Below, piece after piece: positions 4,047 to 21,823 of a stretch of DNA of 64,000 nucleotides. The stretch spans positions 74,907 through 138,906 of the forward strand of contig JAKLKW010000001.1 of the NCBI GenBank assembly GCA_023150455.1, written 5' to 3'. Both the position numbers and the translations under genes were made by a program. How positions within the stretch are numbered: the stretch's first letter is position 1; each line of letters starts with the position of its first letter. The notes under the pieces are model-generated. The model made no database searches. It saw only the letters and a program-made list of their open reading frames with translations, and was not told the DNA's origin. This DNA comes from Alphaproteobacteria bacterium (lineage in GTDB: Bacteria; Pseudomonadota; Alphaproteobacteria; JAEULC01).

Positions 4047-7000
4047 ATGCGGCGCGCCTTCCGGCGCGCCCGTGAAGGGGAGAGAACGGCCTTGGCGACC
4101 AGCGTAGAGGGGATCCAGGCGAGCCTGCTCGGCAGCCTGGACTGGCGTCTCATCGGCCCGCATCGCGGCGGGCGCGTGGTGGCCGTCGCCGGTTGCCCGG
4201 CGGACCCCGCCACGTTCTATTTCGGCGCCTGCGCCGGCGGCGTGTGGAAAACGACCGATGCCGGCCAGACCTGGCTTTGCACGACCGACGGTTTCTTCCG
4301 CACCGCCGCGGTCGGCGCGATCGCCGTGGCGCCTTCGGCGCCCAACGTCATCTATGCCGGCACCGGCGAGGCCTGCATCCGCAACGACGTCTCGCATGGC
4401 GACGGCATCTACAAGTCGGTCGACGCGGGCAAGACCTGGACCCATCTCGGCCTCGACGACACGCGCCACATCGGCCGCATCGTCGTGCATCCGGCCAACC
4501 CGGAACTGGTCTATGTCGCAGCGCTCGGCCATGCCTGGGGCCGCAACAGGCAGCGCGGCGTGTTCCGCTCCAAGGACGGCGGCAGGACCTGGGAGAACGT
4601 GCTCTACAAGAGCGACCGCGCCGGCTCGCACGACATCGCGCTCGATCCGGTCAACCCCAACGTCCTCTATGCGCCGATCTGGCAGGCGCAGCGCTACCCG
4701 CATGCGCTGATCAGCGGCGGCGAGGAGTGCGGCCTGTGGCGGTCGGCCGACGGCGGCGATACCTGGACCGACATCTCGCGCAGCGCCGGCCTGCCCAAGG
4801 GCATGCTCGGCAAGATCGGCGTCGCCGTCTCGCCCGAGCCGGTCGGCGGACGCGGCTACGGCCGCGTCTGGGCGCTGGTCGAGGCCGAGGACGGCGCCAT
4901 GTTCCGCTCCGACGACGGCGGCCGGAGCTTCGAGCGCGCGTCCGAGTTCTCGGGGCTGCGCACGCGGCCCTGGTACTACATGCACGTGACCGCCGATCCG
5001 CAGGATCCCGACACGGTCTACGTGCAGAACTACCGGCTGTGGAAGTCGATCGACGCCGGCAGGACCTTCCTGCAGGTGCCCACGCCGCACGGCGACGACC
5101 ATGCGCTGTGGATCGACCCGAAGAACCCGAAGCGCATGATCGAGGGCAACGACGGCGGCGCCTGCGTTTCGTTCACCGGCGGCCAGTCCTGGTCGTCGAT
5201 CTACAACCAGCCGACCGCGCAGCTCTACCACGTCACGACCGACGACCGCTTTCCCTATCGCGTCTATGCCTCGCAGCAGGACAACACCGCGATCAGCATC
5301 CCCAGCGCCTCGCCGATCGGGGCCATCACCGAGCGCGACTGGATCAAGCCGGGCGGCGGCGAGAGCGGCTACATCGCCATCAAGCACGACAACCCCGACC
5401 TGGTGGTCGCCTCCGGCCCGATCGGACGGCGCTCGCCCAACGACGTCATGTACCTGTTCGACCACAAGACCGGGCAGGACTGGCAGAACACCGTCTGGCC
5501 CGAGCTCTACGGCTGGGGCGTCGGCGCCGAGACCCTCCGGTACCGCTTCAACTGGACCTTCCCGATCCACTACAGCCGGCACGATCCCGACGTGCTGTGG
5601 GTATGCTCGCAGCACCTGCACCGCTCGCGCGACAACGGCGCGAGCTGGGAAGTGGTCAGCCCCGACCTGACGCGCAACGACAAGTCCAGGCTCAAGCCCT
5701 CGGGCGGCCCGGTCACGCGCGACAACACCGGCGCCGAAGTCTATTGCACGATCTTCGCGCTGGCCGAGTCGCCGCAGCGCCGCAACTGGCTGTGGTGCGG
5801 CACCGATGACGGCCTCGTGCACCGCTCCAGGGACGGCGGCAAGCGCTGGGACAACATCACGCCCGACGGCCGGAACGCGAAGGTCGATGGCGCCAAGGCG
5901 AACGCCCTGCCGGAGTGGGCGCTGATCAGCATCGTCGAGGCCTCGCCGCATCACCAGGACGCCTGCTACGTCGCGGCGACGCGCTACAAGCTCGACGACA
6001 CCAGGCCCTATCTCTACAAGACCGCGGACGGCGGCAAGAGCTGGACCAAGATCACGGGCGACATCCCCGACGGCGAGTTCACGCGCACGATCCGCGAGGA
6101 TCCCAGCCGCCGCGGCCTGCTCTATTGCGGCACCGAGACCGGCATCTACGTCTCGTTCGACGACGGCGGCCAGTGGCATCGCCTGGGCGGCAACCTGCCC
6201 GTGGCGCCGATCTACGACCTCGTCGTCAAGGGCGTCGAGATGGTGGTGGCGACCCATGGCCGGTCGATCTGGATCCTCGACGACCTCACGCCGTTCCATC
6301 AGCTCTACGACCTGCTCAGGGAAAAGAAGGGCGGCAAGCCGGCGGCGCACCTGTTCCAGCCGCGCTCGCGCGTGCGCATGCGGGTGATCGGCGGGTTCGG
6401 CGGGATCGCCGCGCAGGCGACCGCGTCGCGCGGGCCCGCCTGGCCGGGGATGATCTCCTATCCGCGCACCGGCACCAACGTGATCCGCGTCCTGCCGCTG
6501 AAGCAGCCGGACGGCAGCTACGACAACCTGCTGCTCGATTCGGGCAGGAACCCGCCCTACGGCGTGGTCGTGCAGTACTACCTGCCCGATAAGCCGAAGG
6601 GCGGCGCAAGCCTGACCTTCCTCGACGAGAAGGGCAGGGAACTCCGGCACTATGCCGGCGTGCCGGCCGAGCCGGGCGTCAACCGGTTCCTGTGGAACCG
6701 GCGTCTCGACGGCGCGCCCAACGTGCTGGCGAAGGACCTGGAGCCATGGAACCGCCCCGACGGCGCCATGGTCGTACCCGGCCGCTATGCGGTGCGCCTG
6801 ACCGTCGACGGCGACAGCCGGACGCAGCCCTTCGAGATCGAGCGCGACCCGCGCGTGAAGACGCGGCTTTCCGACCTCAAGGCGCAGTTCGTCTTCCTCG
6901 GCGAGATCATCGCCAGGCTCACGGCGGTCAACACGATGATCAACGACGTCGACGCGCTGCTGGCGCAGCTCGCCTTGCTCGATCGCCGCGCGGGCGGGCG

Positions 7001-7304
7001 CGCCGCCGTGCGCGACGGTGCGGCGAAGCTTGCAGCAGAGCTGCGCGCGATCCGCGGCGCGCTGATCGACGTGCATTATCCCGGCGCCCAGCTCTACGCG
7101 AGCGGCCTGCACGAAAAGCTCAACGGCTTGTTCGACACGGTCGACAGCGGCGATTTCGCCCCCGCGCAGCAGACGCGCGACGTCTATGCCGTGCTCAGCG
7201 CCGAGCTGGACGCGCTAACGACGCGCTGGCAGCGCGTGCGCGACAAGTCGCTGCCCGCGCTCAACGCCGCCATGGCCCAGTCCGGCTTGGCGGCGATCGG
7301 ATGA
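4047..7304 (+). CDS. Large BNR/Asp-box repeat beta-propeller protein (sortilin/VPS10-like or GH74-like glycosyl hydrolase fold), about 1085 aa
   Basis: At least 10 Asp-box motifs S-x-D-x-G-x-T/S-W/F (SVDAGKTW, SKDGGRTW, SADGGDTW, SDDGGRSF, SIDAGRTF, SRDNGASW, SRDGGKRW, TADGGKSW, FDDGGQW...). Start set at the first in-frame ATG after the preceding gene's stop (4047); the 5' part of ORF 3579 overlaps the permease in another frame. Confidence 0.7.
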   Translation: MRRAFRRAREGERTALATSVEGIQASLLGSLDWRLIGPHRGGRVVAVAGCPADPATFYFGACAGGVWKTTDAGQTWLCTTDGFFRTAAVGAIAVAPSAPNVIYAGTGEACIRNDVSHGDGIYKSVDAGKTWTHLGLDDTRHIGRIVVHPANPELVYVAALGHAWGRNRQRGVFRSKDGGRTWENVLYKSDRAGSHDIALDPVNPNVLYAPIWQAQRYPHALISGGEECGLWRSADGGDTWTDISRSAGLPKGMLGKIGVAVSPEPVGGRGYGRVWALVEAEDGAMFRSDDGGRSFERASEFSGLRTRPWYYMHVTADPQDPDTVYVQNYRLWKSIDAGRTFLQVPTPHGDDHALWIDPKNPKRMIEGNDGGACVSFTGGQSWSSIYNQPTAQLYHVTTDDRFPYRVYASQQDNTAISIPSASPIGAITERDWIKPGGGESGYIAIKHDNPDLVVASGPIGRRSPNDVMYLFDHKTGQDWQNTVWPELYGWGVGAETLRYRFNWTFPIHYSRHDPDVLWVCSQHLHRSRDNGASWEVVSPDLTRNDKSRLKPSGGPVTRDNTGAEVYCTIFALAESPQRRNWLWCGTDDGLVHRSRDGGKRWDNITPDGRNAKVDGAKANALPEWALISIVEASPHHQDACYVAATRYKLDDTRPYLYKTADGGKSWTKITGDIPDGEFTRTIREDPSRRGLLYCGTETGIYVSFDDGGQWHRLGGNLPVAPIYDLVVKGVEMVVATHGRSIWILDDLTPFHQLYDLLREKKGGKPAAHLFQPRSRVRMRVIGGFGGIAAQATASRGPAWPGMISYPRTGTNVIRVLPLKQPDGSYDNLLLDSGRNPPYGVVVQYYLPDKPKGGASLTFLDEKGRELRHYAGVPAEPGVNRFLWNRRLDGAPNVLAKDLEPWNRPDGAMVVPGRYAVRLTVDGDSRTQPFEIERDPRVKTRLSDLKAQFVFLGEIIARLTAVNTMINDVDALLAQLALLDRRAGGRAAVRDGAAKLAAELRAIRGALIDVHYPGAQLYASGLHEKLNGLFDTVDSGDFAPAQQTRDVYAVLSAELDALTTRWQRVRDKSLPALNAAMAQSGLAAIG

Positions 7305-19304: not shown

Positions 19305-19425
19305 CTGCGGGCGCCGACCGGAGACCCAATTCGAATCGCAGCCGGCTGCAACATAGGTCTTGTGGCCCCGACGCCGGACCGCCATACTGGTTGCTGGTTT
19401 CAATAACGTGAAAGGAGGTGATCCA

Positions 19426-19494
19426 GTGTCTCATTGTCATGTTCGGTTGACGGCCGGGACCTGGGTTATCACCGCCTTGGACAGGGCGAGCTAA
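19426..19494 (+). other. Mini-ORF (22 codons, GTG start) preceded by a 15-17 nt perfect complement of the 16S rRNA 3' end (GAAAGGAGGTGATCCAG)
   Basis: Seen in sequence: gaaaggaggtgatccaGTGtctcattgtcatgttcgg...gcgagcTAA. Function unknown (leader peptide, sRNA or regulatory element). Confidence 0.25.
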
Positions 19495-19533
19495 CCCGAC
19501 GTTTTGGTCCTCGGCACCGACCGAGGGACAATG

Positions 19534-19563
19534 GAAGGGCCGCTTCGAAAGAAGCGGCCCTTC
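19534..19563. terminator. Perfect 13-bp stem hairpin GAAGGGCCGCTTC-GAAA-GAAGCGGCCCTTC (GNRA-type tetraloop) in the 500-nt intergenic region; no U-tract on either strand
   Basis: Seen directly; preceded by a second imperfect hairpin GTCCTCGG-cacc-gac-CGAGGGAC at about 19508-19530. Confidence 0.3.
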
Positions 19564-19803
19564 TTCGTTCCGGCGCCGGCGCCGGGCCCCTTTCCGCCAG
19601 CCTGGCTGCGGTTTGGCGGCCTGCGTACCCGCCCAGGTGCCGTGGCGCGCGGTTTCTCTTGCGGCCGGGCGGCATGTTAGGGTTATGTGCAGCGGGGGAA
19701 GCCCGTGATTCTGATGGAATTTCATGATGCTGCCGGCGCCAGGTGAGATCGCCAACCGGGCCGCGGTCGCCGCCGCGGCGGATGGTGGGATGGCGCCCGC
19801 GCC

Positions 19804-20997
19804 ATGACCCTGCCGCAGCGCTACATCCTCGGCGCCCTCGTCAAGACCGTCGTCGCGGTTGTCGTGATCGTCGTCGCCGTCGCGTGCATCACGCGGTCGC
19901 TGGTGTTCCTGGACTACATCGTGAACCGCGGCATGTCGGTCTCCATCTACTTGTACATCATGCTGCTCACGATGCCGATGCTGCTGTTCGGCCTGTTGCC
20001 GCTCGCCGGGTTCGCGAGCGTGCTTTTCATCTATCACAAGCTCAGCATCGACAACGAGCTCGTGGTGCTGCGCTCGGCCGGGATGAGCAACGCCGCGCTG
20101 GCAACGCCCGCCATCATCGTCGCGGGCGCCACGACGATGCTTTGCCTGTCGATGTCGGCCTATTTCATGCCGAGGTCGTTCGGCGAGTTCAAGGACATCG
20201 AATTCTTCCTGAAGCACCGCGTTGCGAGCCTGATCGTCAAGGAGGGCGAGTTCAGCCGGCTCGGGGCGAAGGTCACGATCTACGTCCGCGAGCGCAAGCG
20301 AAGCGGCGAGCTGATCGGCGTGCTCGTCCAGGACGATCGCGATCCCGAGCGGTCGAAGACCGTCACCGCCGAAAGCGCCCTGTTGTCGCGCGTGGGCGAC
20401 GTCAACAAGGTCCTGCTCAAGCAAGGCAATATGCAGGAGTTCGAGCGGCGGACGGGAAGGCTTTCAGTGGTGTATTTCGACCAGCACGTCACGGAGATCG
20501 ACATGCGGGAGTCCGGGCCCGCCCGGATTCGCGAGCGCGGCATGGCCGAGCGCGGCATCCTCGAGCTGCTGAATCCTCCGACCGAGACGCCGCGCGACCG
20601 CGAGCTGGTCGGTCGGTCCCTGGCGGAAGGCAATCAGCGCATCGCCTTGCCGCTGCTGTGCCTGACCTATGTTGCGATCGCCCTGGCCACGCTGCTGATC
20701 GGACCGTACGACCGCCGTGGCGCGCGCGTGCGCATCCTGGTTGCCTGCGGCGTGGTCGTGATCGTGCAAGCGCTGAACCTTCTCCTTGCCAGCGCGGCAT
20801 CGAAAGCCACGATCCTGCTGCCGGCCATTCATCTGAACACGCTCCTGCCGGGCCTTGCCTGCGCGGTCCTGCTCGCCTACTGCGACAGGCGGCTTCCGCG
20901 CGGCCAACTGCTTGGCCGGTTGCAGCGCCACGCAACCGTCTCCCTGCCTGGCTGGCGCGGGACCGCGCCATCGATGCGGGACGGCGGCGTTGGATAG
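19804..20997 (+). CDS. LptF/LptG family permease (YjgP/YjgQ)
   Basis: 397 aa, N-terminal TM helices, large central periplasmic domain, C-terminal TM helices; typical YjgP/YjgQ architecture. Confidence 0.75.
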   Translation: MTLPQRYILGALVKTVVAVVVIVVAVACITRSLVFLDYIVNRGMSVSIYLYIMLLTMPMLLFGLLPLAGFASVLFIYHKLSIDNELVVLRSAGMSNAALATPAIIVAGATTMLCLSMSAYFMPRSFGEFKDIEFFLKHRVASLIVKEGEFSRLGAKVTIYVRERKRSGELIGVLVQDDRDPERSKTVTAESALLSRVGDVNKVLLKQGNMQEFERRTGRLSVVYFDQHVTEIDMRESGPARIRERGMAERGILELLNPPTETPRDRELVGRSLAEGNQRIALPLLCLTYVAIALATLLIGPYDRRGARVRILVACGVVVIVQALNLLLASAASKATILLPAIHLNTLLPGLACAVLLAYCDRRLPRGQLLGRLQRHATVSLPGWRGTAPSMRDGGVG

Positions 20998-21070
20998 GTC
21001 CGCGGCCGGCGGTCCGCTTCGCGCCCTGGCGTCGTCCGCGACGGCAGCCCATGTCCTGTGCCTGCTGATC

Positions 21071-21823
21071 GTGATCAGCTTCTTCGGGTCGGTCGCGATC
21101 GCGGCGTCCTTGTTCCCGACCGGCTTCGACATGCGCTACCGCTGGGTTTCCTCGCTCGCCTCCTCGCGCGACAATCCGGGCGGCCATCACTATTTCGGTG
21201 CCGGCCTGATCCTCGTCGGCCTGCTGTCGATACCGGTTGTCCGCTACTTGTTCCTGACGCTCCCGCGCCATCGATCGCTGAACCGCCTGGGCCTGGCGCT
21301 GCTGTATATCGGCGCCGTGGCGCTGGTGACCCTGGGCATCGAGGCGGCATTCTTTCCCAATCCCGGAAAGGTGCGTTTCGTCCACGAAGTGGCGACTGGC
21401 GCCGGATTTGGCGGCTACGCCTTCGGGTTCGCCTGCTTCACGGCCATTGCGATCCGCCAGGCGCCGGGATCGCGCTATGCGCAGATGTATGGCGGTCTCA
21501 CAGCCGTCCTCATCGGGCTGCCGCTGATCGCGACCGGAATCTGCGAGCTCGTCTGGCTGGCGACGCACTCCCCGGATCTGTTCGGCTCGGACTTTCCGGA
21601 GAAGAAGCTGCCTTGGCTGGTTTTCAGCAAGGCTCTCTGGGAATGGATGCTGATCATCGACCTCATCCTCGTGCTGTGGATGACGGTCTGGCATGTATCG
21701 CGCAATTCGCGCCCGGTTGGAGAGCCCGCCCGCGGCCTTGGCGATCTCGTCGGCGTCCCGGTGCGAGGCGACGCGCCGGCTTCCCTGGTCGCCCGCGAGG
21801 CGAATATCGACCAGGGCGCATGA
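21071..21823 (+). CDS. Integral membrane hypothetical protein (about 250 aa, 6-7 TM)
   Basis: Hydrophobic ORF following the LptF-like gene; 5' part of ORF 20855 overlaps the preceding gene so start placed at in-frame GTG 21071 (uncertain). Confidence 0.4.
   Translation: MISFFGSVAIAASLFPTGFDMRYRWVSSLASSRDNPGGHHYFGAGLILVGLLSIPVVRYLFLTLPRHRSLNRLGLALLYIGAVALVTLGIEAAFFPNPGKVRFVHEVATGAGFGGYAFGFACFTAIAIRQAPGSRYAQMYGGLTAVLIGLPLIATGICELVWLATHSPDLFGSDFPEKKLPWLVFSKALWEWMLIIDLILVLWMTVWHVSRNSRPVGEPARGLGDLVGVPVRGDAPASLVAREANIDQGA

Follow-up and report, generated by a model that had tools for sequence, protein, structure and literature searches.

A probable rre-type small mRNA gene of the CC2171 family, headed by an extended Shine-Dalgarno sequence, in an alphaproteobacterial intergenic region

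Results

The intergenic gap at 19305-19803 of the window (i.e., the whole 64,000-nt stretch of alphaproteobacterial DNA analyzed here) very probably harbors a stand-alone small-mRNA gene of the rre type, belonging to the CC2171 family and related to rreB of Bradyrhizobium. The gap lies between a DAO/FAO_M/GCV_T dehydrogenase gene and a LptF_LptG gene, the latter having the same orientation as the small gene and starting 240 nt downstream of it. The gene type is not new, since the CC2171/rre family has already been described in Alphaproteobacteria. An Rfam covariance-model search and a survey of relatives were among the checks proposed in the preliminary description of this DNA, and both gave a positive answer. 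In the former, RF01867 (Caulobacter sRNA CC2171) matched 19402-19561 over model positions 1-159 of 159 (E-value = 1.7e-15) at 76.3 bits, only 1.3 bits more than its gathering score of 75, and this places the region within the family. The Rfam consensus of RF01867 contains GAAAGGAGGUGAUCCAGUGUCUCAU, and its consensus structure is present in the window, namely the CAUUGUC/GACAAUG closing stem and the 14-bp terminal hairpin, with covariation in 79 homologues.

The probe used in Caulobacter to detect CC2171_CC2172 (R0051) on Northern blots runs antisense to the 3' portion of sequences of the Caulobacter type, and the R0051 entry is annotated as "Translated CCNA_03965" in a supplementary table (Schrader 2014, PMC4117421). 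Translation is supported there by ribosome profiling, and the CCNA_03965::YFP strain represents one of four small CDSs confirmed by western blot (PMC4117421). The CC2171 RNA has also been validated by Northern blot in Methylorubrum. Concerning Bradyrhizobium, rreB-type loci match RF01867 significantly, though below the threshold, and the rreB and CC2171 groups are therefore related; RF01867, CCNA_R0051/CCNA_03965 and rre are a single superfamily. From the homologues of Caulobacter, Methylorubrum and Bradyrhizobium we infer transcription, translation and 30S binding in the present organism. In the literature searched, bacterial "rreB" or "ribosome-regulated expression" was found in Hahn et al. 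alone, and text searches returned noise only with the peptide strings and oligonucleotide tables only with GGAGGUGAUCC. Hahn et al. do not mention CC2171, and Rfam and most later papers treat the CC2171 RNA as non-coding.

The 17-mer GAAAGGAGGTGATCCAG at 19410-19426 (+) is the sole copy in the window when both strands are searched with up to two mismatches tolerated. Reverse-complemented, it reads CUGGAUCACCUCCUUUC and is identical to the 16S 3' region of Alphaproteobacteria, GGCUGGAUCACCUCCUUUCU, as printed for S. meliloti (PMC6943124), and the B. japonicum 16S 3' tail given by Hahn et al. agrees with it (PMC5711450), so that the 17-nt complement initially reported does exist. The organism's own 16S gene lies outside the window, and we infer that its rRNA is matched likewise. 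Pairing with the tail is limited to exactly 17 nt, as there is a T at 19409, where an A would extend it, and a T at 19427, where a C would. With its final G the 17-mer opens the GTG at 19426-19428, which had been noticed directly after the complement. A duplex of -32.4 kcal/mol is predicted for the 17-mer and the 16S tail, compared with -9.2 kcal/mol for AGGAGG alone, making tight 30S binding of the RNA plausible. The preliminary description considered such a 17-mer too specific to arise by chance in 64 kb, in line with the 0.01 chance matches expected from shuffled sequence, and took it to exceed by far a normal Shine-Dalgarno (SD) sequence; its conservation in homologues marks it as a functional, selected super-Shine-Dalgarno element.

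Conservation in relatives is extensive. A genome scan returned at least 120 loci, spread over the Alphaproteobacteria, and the homologues amount in all to more than 200, in which the 17-mer is nearly invariant. The GAAA extension of the 17-mer, although outside the scan pattern, is present in 112/121 loci among the matches listed, and a perfect 17-mer was found in 100 of 116 metagenome hits that had been selected without reference to it. A module of the 17-mer and GUGUCUCAU recurs at more than 200 unrelated loci. These data bear directly on the idea that the sequence is what remains of the end of a deleted rRNA operon, or matches by chance. Its identity to the complement of the 16S terminus would suit such an origin, but the chance expectation is negligible, no rRNA family has a match here or nearby, rRNA similarity ends with the 17 nt, the sequence past them does not run on into helix 45, and the module is conserved with the same flanks at more than 200 loci of different orders. 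The operon relic, suggested at first, is thus scarcely credible.

Synteny is absent, the biggest cluster of shared neighbors comprising 12/121 loci among the matches listed, and Hahn et al. likewise found the genomic neighbors of rre not to be conserved (PMC5711450). This bears on a cis-acting role, a leader or attenuator having been among the early candidates: the element would control the downstream lptF-like gene through translation of a leader peptide. Such a role would agree with the shared orientation of the LptF_LptG gene at a short distance downstream and with an attenuator-like architecture of short ORF, hairpins and terminator. However, almost every genome has different neighbors: in Caulobacter the homologue is followed by a convergent gene, and rreB of B. 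japonicum (L061 in our set) is located between a tRNA gene and a sensor gene (PMC5711450). Moreover, the terminator does not vary, and the homologue alignments showed no conserved alternative in the form of an anti-terminator, which renders a leader function very improbable. The small gene is stand-alone, being neither a leader, an attenuator nor an rRNA relic.

A putative housekeeping-type promoter is located at 19360-19388 (+), with TTGTGG as the -35 box (19360-19365), a spacer of 17 nt and CATACT as the -10 box (19383-19388). A simple consensus promoter scan of the window made no call at this position, but among the matches listed the 119 homologues anchored at GGAGG show information peaks upstream of it at -54..-51 (TTG-like) and -31..-25 (A/T-rich), and the rreB promoter is described as RpoD-like (PMC5711450). 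The predicted transcript, an rre/CC2171-type small mRNA of ~170-176 nt, would occupy 19395-19570 (+), with its 5' end somewhere in 19395-19402 and its 3' end just past the terminator. For comparison, rreB is 165 nt long with a transcription start 8 nt upstream of the 17-mer (PMC5711450), and Caulobacter CCNA_R0051 is listed with 193 nt and its own 5'-PPP start, the Northern-verified RNA having 193-209 nt. The A/C-rich 5' leader CAAUAACG at 19402-19409 (+) corresponds to the family consensus CAACAAC[CU]; the leader is conserved though outside the search pattern, with an A at -11 in 107/120 loci among the matches listed and CAACAAC overall. The fold of the window transcript has a z-score of -5.9. 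Taken as a pattern in the DNA, these features support a discrete small transcript that is headed by the 17-mer and ends at the GNRA hairpin. Among the candidates first put forward, an sRNA and a ribosome-sequestering super-Shine-Dalgarno come closest, considering that among the homologues rreB is bound to 30S and the Caulobacter RNA is Northern-verified.

The closing stem P1a is formed by CAUUGUC at 19432-19438 (+), within codons 3-5, and GACAAUG at 19527-19533 (+), which directly abuts the terminator. In the alignment 97.8% of its cells are paired and three of its seven pairs have changes on both sides. Straight after P1a, essentially every homologue carries the terminator hairpin, with 95% of cells paired and 9/10 pairs changed on both sides. 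In the window it is an intrinsic-terminator-like element at 19533-19570 (+), where the 13-bp hairpin originally placed at 19534-19563 proved to be a perfect 14-bp, GAAA-looped stem at 19533-19564. Its weak U-containing tail, CGUUCC following the stem's own CUUCU, is U-poor, consistent with the lack of a U-tract remarked on earlier, and the family consensus tail CUUCUUUGUUUU is more U-rich. The imperfect hairpin described earlier is present as well, at ~19508-19527 (+), pairing CCUCGG (19509-19514) with CCGAGG (19521-19526), as read from the sequence and the minimum-free-energy fold. This hairpin region is variable across the family.

Within the ORF, the segment CUGG-guu-AUCACC-g-CCUU at 19461-19478 (+), which begins at the Trp13 codon, resembles the 16S tail (cf. 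CUGGAUCACCUCCUU), and among internal segments in the window it pairs best with the 17-mer (-18.1 kcal/mol, z = -2.8). In nearly all homologues the strongest partner lies at this position too (mean -16.8 kcal/mol, median z -1.9), and the two half-helices of the 17-mer with this mimic have 89.5% and 77.9% of cells paired. For the whole structure, on which the slid-partner control was run, 86.3% are paired compared to 34-50% in the control. Where the 17-mer varies, the mimic shows compensatory changes, in three lineages (L143; L129/L196; L149). Judged from these changes, the SD-sequestering partner is an imitation of the 16S tail. Since the helix of 17-mer and mimic crosses the closing stem, the two would belong to one pseudoknot or else to alternative folds. 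When a MAFFT alignment was given to RNAalifold, nothing but the closing stem, the terminator and a local hairpin of 3 bp came out, the variable middle being poorly aligned. Single-sequence folds, which cannot represent the crossing helix, gave a mean unpaired probability of 0.29 for GGAGG, largely owing to a small GGA/UCC hairpin, and thus a mixed picture of SD accessibility; the minimum-free-energy fold of the window copy comes without the family closing stem.

A strongly structured 3' half, together with a predicted promoter and terminator of its own, could also belong to a trans-acting base-pairing sRNA, whose CCUC loops or 17-mer would pair with other RNAs, leaving translation as a by-product or a further function. 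The RNA is catalogued as an sRNA in Rfam, CCUC motifs are frequent in the variable region and R0051 is induced 4.4-fold upon mitomycin C treatment in Caulobacter. Nevertheless, we consider this explanation unlikely, given that it lacks a known target, that the supplementary files searched from a Caulobacter Hfq-binding study do not list R0051, and that the conserved frame, start and stop of the ORF are unexpected for a purely non-coding RNA. Furthermore, the sole invariant single-stranded candidate seed is the 17-mer, whose perfect partner is 16S rRNA.

The small ORF at 19426-19494 (+) encodes MSHCHVRLTAGTWVITALDRAS in 22 codons, from the GTG to a TAA stop at 19492-19494, as was initially reported. 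Among the matches listed, frame 0 reaches a stop in 119/119 homologues with a median of 24 codons (IQR 22-25), whereas the other frames scatter. The ORF measures 20-26 codons in 201 of 217 unique sequences (93%) compared with 10% of shuffles; homologues end with any of the three stop codons, and the only start-codon variants are ATG or TTG. Beyond codon 5, pN/pS is 0.94 and equal to that of shifted frames; the figure is based on 168 non-independent pairs, and the ORFs compared are very short and overlap with RNA structure. Substitutions are distributed over the codon positions as 32/35/33%, while position 2 receives 18% in the flanking ORFs, a control contaminated by shadow frames of GC-rich DNA and used only for the drop at position 2 in real coding DNA. 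On these counts, the peptide of CC2171-type members appears to be under no detectable amino-acid constraint, though frame and length are kept; the counts leave room for weak selection on a few residues (Cys4, Trp).

It could still be argued that the 22-residue peptide is the functional product and that the super-Shine-Dalgarno merely serves, in an unusual manner, to express a small protein that is conserved. The open frame of conserved length, the nearly invariant N-terminal MSHC with one Trp, and translation demonstrated in two species (Caulobacter, B. japonicum) fit such a reading, and Hahn et al. hold RreB and RreR to be conserved within their own clades (PMC5711450). On the other hand, changes past codon 5 fall evenly over the codon positions, and the conserved "residues" coincide with RNA elements (CAUUGUC of the closing stem, CCGCGG of P1b, CUGGAU of the mimic), the Trp being lost in L035 and L113 where GGAUC is kept. 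In addition, the sORFs of the clades (14, 18 and 21-25 codons) are dissimilar past the first 3-4 codons, synthetic RreB and RreR were unstructured and overproduction had no phenotype (PMC5711450), and searches of Pfam and NCBIfam with five representative peptides gave no family match. A functional peptide is therefore improbable in our opinion, and an rre-type RNA whose translation matters more than its product is preferred. The peptide was annotated in one of ten cases looked up. A TnaC-like arrest peptide, with Trp at a fixed distance from the stop, was also considered and rejected: the Trp codon falls on CUGG in the pairing element of the RNA, the Trp-to-stop spacing ranges over 7-12 residues and the C-terminal residues are not conserved.

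Discussion

The closest described system is rreB of Bradyrhizobium, for which analogues were reported across the Alphaproteobacteria (Hahn et al., 2016, RNA Biol 14:1353, PMC5711450). The window copy shares with it an identical 17-nt 16S complement whose last base begins a GTG codon, a short A/C-rich leader, an RpoD-type promoter and a terminator of its own (both predicted here), a total length of ~165-175 nt, a 17-mer that is by prediction mostly paired within the RNA, and a context that is not conserved outside the family. It differs in that the rreB peptide has 14 residues (e.g., MSQSKRCHLAGIAR in L061) instead of 22, only MSH being common to both, and in that the ORF body and 3' structure cannot be aligned. 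Furthermore, rreB proper, in the Bradyrhizobiaceae, adjoins a tRNA-Gly gene, whereas the window copy adjoins the dehydrogenase gene and lptF, and co-sedimentation with 30S, weak translation and start-codon-dependent decay are experimental facts for rreB only. Compared by published description only, rreR of the Rhodobacter/Roseobacter clade has a similar extended complement of 16-17 nt ending in the GTG of a small ORF, but this sORF has 18 codons and an unrelated sequence (PMC5711450). As for CC2171, i.e., CCNA_R0051/CCNA_03965 (Landt 2008; Schrader 2014, PMC4117421), the match is full-length and above the gathering score, and the 5' module, the ORF type of 21-25 codons (MSHC...W...), the closing stem and the terminator are all common to the window copy. 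The latter is divergent, with its 76.3 bits against 88-97 in typical members, and its internal mimic is more 16S-like (AUCACC).

Small RNAs of dual function that also encode a small peptide include SgrS/SgrT and RNAIII/hld, which have known mRNA targets and ordinary ribosome-binding sites. They resemble the present RNA in being short, independent or liberated transcripts that are both structured and translated, but the rre/CC2171 RNA is defined by its full-tail SD and has no known target. The rnTrpL/peTrpL pair of Sinorhizobium (PMC6614838) is likewise a short transcript both structured and peptide-coding. A comparison can also be drawn with hairpins that hide an SD sequence. Translational riboswitches and RNA thermometers pair the SD with an internal strand that resembles the anti-SD and has to be displaced for initiation. 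Here, in contrast, an invariant SD strand of 17 nt faces a competitor that copies the 16S tail itself and is part of the ORF it would control, and neither a ligand nor a temperature trigger is indicated. For the annotation of the window the matter is settled, as the 500-nt gap carries a known small-gene type missed by protein-gene callers. More generally, rre/CC2171 is an unusual natural case of an RNA that pairs with the entire 16S tail and is conserved over a bacterial class, with no known function ten years on.

The data suggest that a constitutive-type promoter would give rise to a ~175-nt transcript ending at a strong hairpin. At 8-15 bases from its 5' end, a 17-nt stretch would be able to pair with the whole single-stranded 16S 3' tail and two bases of helix 45, and would end on the G of the GUG start codon, much as the rreB 17c-region takes in the first base of its GTG (PMC5711450). 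This stretch may capture the 30S subunit very tightly, and the great length of the duplex, together with the GUG start, may keep translation of the 22-codon ORF weak; both are expected here by homology with rreB. The rreB RNA is recovered in P100 and sediments together with 30S subunits, its localization to ribosomes needs the 5' extension of the SD, and its translation in B. japonicum was demonstrated to be weak (PMC5711450). In the free RNA, conservation and covariation point to most of the 17-mer being held by the 16S-tail imitation inside the ORF, and to codons 3-5 being held in the closing stem adjoining the terminator, so the ribosome would have to force its way into a folded RNA, with the 5' GAAA end as its probable point of entry. 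What is selected, in this scheme, is the RNA fold together with the 17-mer and with the frame and length of the ORF, and not the peptide sequence, and ribosome loading and transit appear to be what matters. In rreB, loading and transit also trigger decay of the RNA, the change of GUG to UAG raising its half-life from 10 to 37 min (PMC5711450). Simple ribosome titration is not supported as a function, because a 20-fold overproduced ribosome-binding RNA had no effect on growth (Hahn et al., PMC5711450).

Speculatively, and with rather little confidence, the RNA could be viewed as a self-resetting ribosome trap or sensor for which the peptide is irrelevant. A 30S subunit whose 16S tail is free and intact would invade the folded RNA via the 17-mer. 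The ORF would be just long enough for the mimic to have left the mRNA exit by the time the ribosome stands on the stop codon, and the mimic would then displace the tail from the 17-mer, releasing the ribosome and either re-closing the RNA or exposing it for decay. If true, the RNA would serve as a readout or buffer of the 30S subunits competent for initiation, or as a check that the 16S 3' end is intact, and this would explain why frame, ORF length and mimic are conserved and the amino acids are not. In 65% of members, the stop codon is located 10 codons past the start of the mimic.

Identification of the Element and Its Family

The 17-mer GAAAGGAGGTGATCCAG, read at positions 19410-19426 (+), shares its last G with a GTG start codon (19426-19428, +), which opens a small ORF of 22 codons (19426-19494, +) ending in a TAA stop at 19492-19494. 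Downstream lie an imperfect hairpin at about 19508-19527 and, at 19533-19564, a hairpin with a 14-bp stem and a GAAA loop. The preliminary description of this arrangement was accurate. The 17-mer occurs only once in the window on both strands, even with up to two mismatches allowed, and dinucleotide-preserving shuffles gave 0.01 expected matches, which upholds the earlier view that it is not expected by chance in 64 kb. Its reverse complement corresponds to the alphaproteobacterial 16S rRNA 3′ region, the tail being taken from S. meliloti (printed as GGCUGGAUCACCUCCUUUCU; PMC6943124), and the complementarity ends at exactly 17 nt; the organism's own 16S gene lies outside the window.

The covariance-model search (Rfam) that had been proposed as a check identified RF01867 ("caulobacter sRNA CC2171") at 19402-19561, over the whole model and with 76.3 bits, only 1.3 bits above the gathering score of 75. 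No other family attains its gathering score anywhere in the 64 kb. Since the RF01867 consensus itself starts with cAAcaAucGAAAGGAGGUGAUCCAGUGUCUCAU, the 17-mer belongs to the features of the family. CC2171 was discovered in Caulobacter (Landt, 2008) and validated by Northern blot in Methylorubrum extorquens, its function being given as unknown. The CC2171_CC2172 probe belongs to CCNA_R0051 and is annotated as "Translated CCNA_03965," and western blotting confirmed four small CDSs, CCNA_03965::YFP among them (Schrader et al., 2014; PMC4117421). CCNA_R0051 has a 5′-PPP start and a length of 193-209 nt. The gene downstream of it is convergent, and its own level goes up 4.4-fold following mitomycin C.

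The 17-nt complement was described in 2016 as the "17c-region" of the rre small mRNAs (Hahn et al., 2016; PMC5711450). In Bradyrhizobium japonicum, rreB is a 165-nt mRNA with a 14-codon ORF, whose 17c-region takes in the GTG's initial base. Its RNA was recovered with the ribosomal pellet and sediments together with 30S subunits, ribosome localization requires the 5′ extension of the SD, and its half-life went up from 10 to 37 min once GUG was changed to UAG. Analogues that are complementary over 16-17 nt and lie in non-conserved contexts were reported from Caulobacterales, Rhizobiales, Rhodobacterales (rreR, 18 codons) and Rhodospirillales, and the function was termed elusive (PMC5711450). CC2171 is not mentioned in that paper, which was the only one found in a literature search for "rreB" in its bacterial sense or "ribosome-regulated expression." Typical RF01867 members score 88-97 bits. 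Three rreB-type loci, namely L061 (a Bradyrhizobium locus adjoining a tRNA gene), L040 and L082, score 36-52 bits (E ≤ 5e-4) and are thus related to them, although Rfam's threshold excludes them. A genuine relative from Acetobacteraceae (L003, 69 bits) also falls under the 75-bit cut-off, so that routine Rfam annotation overlooks a large share of the superfamily. The element had been on record before, as a curated RNA family on the one hand and as the rre class, with its 17c-region, on the other, and three literatures describe one superfamily.

Distribution and Genomic Context

Searching one genome from each species for the pattern GGAGGTGATCCAGTGTCTCA led to at least 120 loci, the matches listed belonging to Acetobacteraceae, Caulobacterales, many Hyphomicrobiales, Sphingomonadales, Rhizomicrobium, Stellaceae and Dongiaceae. 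Among these listed matches, GAAA stands directly 5′ of GGAGG in 112 of 121 sequences, four bases that the search pattern left unconstrained, while an A before it that would extend the pairing is found in only 15%. An independent metagenome scan relied on the closing-stem strands only (CATTGTC, N85-115, GACAATGGAAGGGC) and did not require the 17-mer. Out of its 116 matches, 100 bear a perfect 17-mer at the expected position, confirming the conservation in relatives for which the preliminary description had called; about 11 of the others have 1-3 changes and about five are chance matches. Start-codon variants in these 116 matches were ATG and TTG only. It is scarcely conceivable that the 17-mer is a chance match or the relic of an rRNA operon, the latter suggested earlier, given its recurrence in both scans, the shuffle expectation and the single Rfam family at its gathering score.

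Flanking genes show no conservation: among the matches listed, at most 12 of 121 loci share a cluster of neighbors. A cis-acting leader or attenuator, also put forward from the sequence and here concerning lptF, is therefore highly improbable. Upstream of the listed homologues, weak TTG-like and A/T-rich peaks with a 17-nt spacing suggest a housekeeping promoter, whose candidate elements in the window are TTGTGG (19360-19365) and CATACT (19383-19388).

Concerning the surroundings, the 230 nt from the rre terminator to the lptF start (19572-19803, +) are GC-rich and include a terminator-like site at 19639-19653, and the ORFs at 19434-19727 and 19504-19680 are probably spurious. The gene at 20990-21823 (+; L241 4187-5020) overlaps with the LptF_LptG gene at the latter's end, a place where an LptG partner might be expected; no Pfam match was recorded for its 277-residue product. 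ARAGORN called a 92-nt tRNA-Ala(CGC) at 6979-7070 (+), probably a false positive, since the Rfam tRNA model found nothing in the whole window at the gathering threshold or in 6850-7200 at E up to 1.

Selection on the Small ORF

In frame 0, all 119 sequences among the matches listed have a stop (median 24 codons, IQR 22-25), while the stops of the other two frames are widely scattered. The ORF measures 20-26 codons in 93% of 217 unique sequences against 10% of shuffles, with TGA (104), TAA (62) and TAG (51) interchanging as stop codons. From the kept frame, the ORF length and these exchanges we conclude that selection acts on translation through a set length. Past codon 5, substitutions in 168 close pairs spread evenly over the three codon positions (32/35/33%), and pN/pS is 0.94, indistinguishable from the 1.0 of shifted frames; in long flanking ORFs of the same genomes, a control that includes shadow frames, only 18% of changes fall on position 2. 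The seemingly conserved residues MSHC, P-R-S and T-W-I fall on RNA pairing strands. On these grounds we conclude that such comparisons detect no selection for the peptide's sequence, though a few residues may be weakly constrained. A functional small protein, to which the conserved reading frame might point, is unlikely, because pN/pS is near 1, the sORFs of sister clades are unrelated, and the peptides are unstructured and without phenotype.

RNA Structure and the Internal 16S-Tail Mimic

The best internal partner of the 17-mer is located at the same place in almost every member and starts at a Trp codon. Its sequence, CCUGGAU(C)-N3-5-(G)CCUC(C), imitates the 16S tail CUGGAUCACCUCC. Among the matches listed, the first CTGG is offset from the start by a multiple of three in 94/113, and in 92 of these 94 the in-frame TGG offset is 33, 36, 39, 42, 45 or 48 nt, a further indication that the reading frame is selected. 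The 17-mer:mimic duplex averages -16.8 kcal/mol in the family (median z -1.9 against dinucleotide shuffles), and the mimic in the window, CUGG-guu-AUCACC-g-CCUU at 19461-19478, reaches -18.1 kcal/mol (z = -2.8). In the alignment, the two half-helices of this duplex pair in 89.5% and 77.9% of cells; for the whole structure the value is 86.3%, compared to 34-50% with slid partners. Since so few members deviate in the 17-mer, covariation is rare here, yet matching partner changes accompany an altered 17-mer in three independent lineages: GAAACGAGG with CCUCGUUUC in L143, ..AUCUCG with CGAGGUC in L129 and L196, and GACCC with GGGUU in L149. In two Caulobacteraceae MAGs (L020, L030), a 3′-half insertion about 106 nt after the GUG holds GGGAUCACCUCCC, which is identical to the core of the 16S 3′ tail and, at -22.9 kcal/mol, makes a better partner for the 17-mer than the usual imperfect mimic.

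The closing stem joins CAUUGUC (codons 3-5) with GACAAUG directly 5′ of the terminator and is paired in 97.8% of alignment cells, with the compensatory variants CAUAGUU/GACUAUG and CAUGACC/GGUCAUG. Covariation is also strong in the terminator hairpin, and a second stem segment, P1b, has two-sided changes at 8/8 pairs, with only 66% of cells paired in what is a crude alignment. The SD:mimic helix and the closing stem cross, so that they form either a pseudoknot or alternative states. All but the five 5′-most bases of the rreB 17c-region are predicted to be paired, and these five were proposed as a seed (PMC5711450). The predicted duplex with the 16S tail amounts to -32.4 kcal/mol, against -9.2 for AGGAGG. 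Since the 17-mer is invariant while its internal partner is variable and imperfect, it would be held by an invariant external partner, a role that fits the 16S tail.

Putative Mode of Action

As judged from the compared homologues, selection is shown on the 17-mer, start and stop codons, ORF length, closing stem, terminator and 16S-tail mimic, and not on the peptide sequence or the genomic neighbors. By analogy to homologues, in which these steps were demonstrated, the window copy would be transcribed from its own promoter, bind 30S subunits through the 17-mer and be weakly translated from GUG, and initiation or translation would promote its decay. The free RNA would be auto-inhibited, with the ribosome invading it from the GAAA at its 5′ end, and the functional event would probably be the loading and passage of ribosomes. 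Simple titration of ribosomes is unlikely, as 20-fold overproduction of rreB left growth unaffected (PMC5711450). A trans-acting base-pairing sRNA is improbable as well, having no known target and leaving conserved start, stop and frame to be explained, although base pairing may be a second function of the RNA. The stop codon lies 10 codons past the mimic start in 65% of members, which led us to a speculative and rather doubtful idea: the mimic would just have emerged from the ribosome at termination, and by displacing the 16S tail it could return the system to its initial state. Neutral peptide evolution, a covarying mimic and fixed mimic-to-stop spacing provide testable hypotheses.

Variant Copies

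Some copies deviate from this plan. On one metagenome contig (L228) the ORF body, mimic, closing stem and terminator are normal, but the unrelated AGAAATGCGTTGGATCT stands in place of the 17-mer and the ORF opens with TTG; this copy may have decayed or been rearranged. Two others (L146, L209) have an ATG start and a complementary block one base further 5′ (AGAAAGGAGGTGATCCA) that reaches the terminal U of 16S instead, with the internal mimics GGAUCACCU and GGUCACCUC; ATG-start copies have been mentioned in Azospirillum (PMC5711450). Rre-type elements were also detected on contigs with the MAG labels Gemmatimonadales (L004, 1.47-Mb; a variant with CCGAGGAGGTGATCCAG, 14-codon ORF, stem CAUGACC/GGUCAUG), Hydrogenophaga (L047) and Parcubacteria (L051), which could reflect mis-binning, mislabeling or real spread beyond Alphaproteobacteria. 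Finally, L088 and L067 encode the same peptide, MSHCHTLRSPVAVTWILASAEIGA, with the terminator at +224 and +119, respectively. Between the stop codon and the closing stem's 3′ strand, L088 has an insertion of about 100 nt, and so has L021, there with a perfect 14-bp palindrome (GGATCCCAAAAGTGG...CCACTTTTGGGATCC); a small mobile repeat appears to have entered this variable region.
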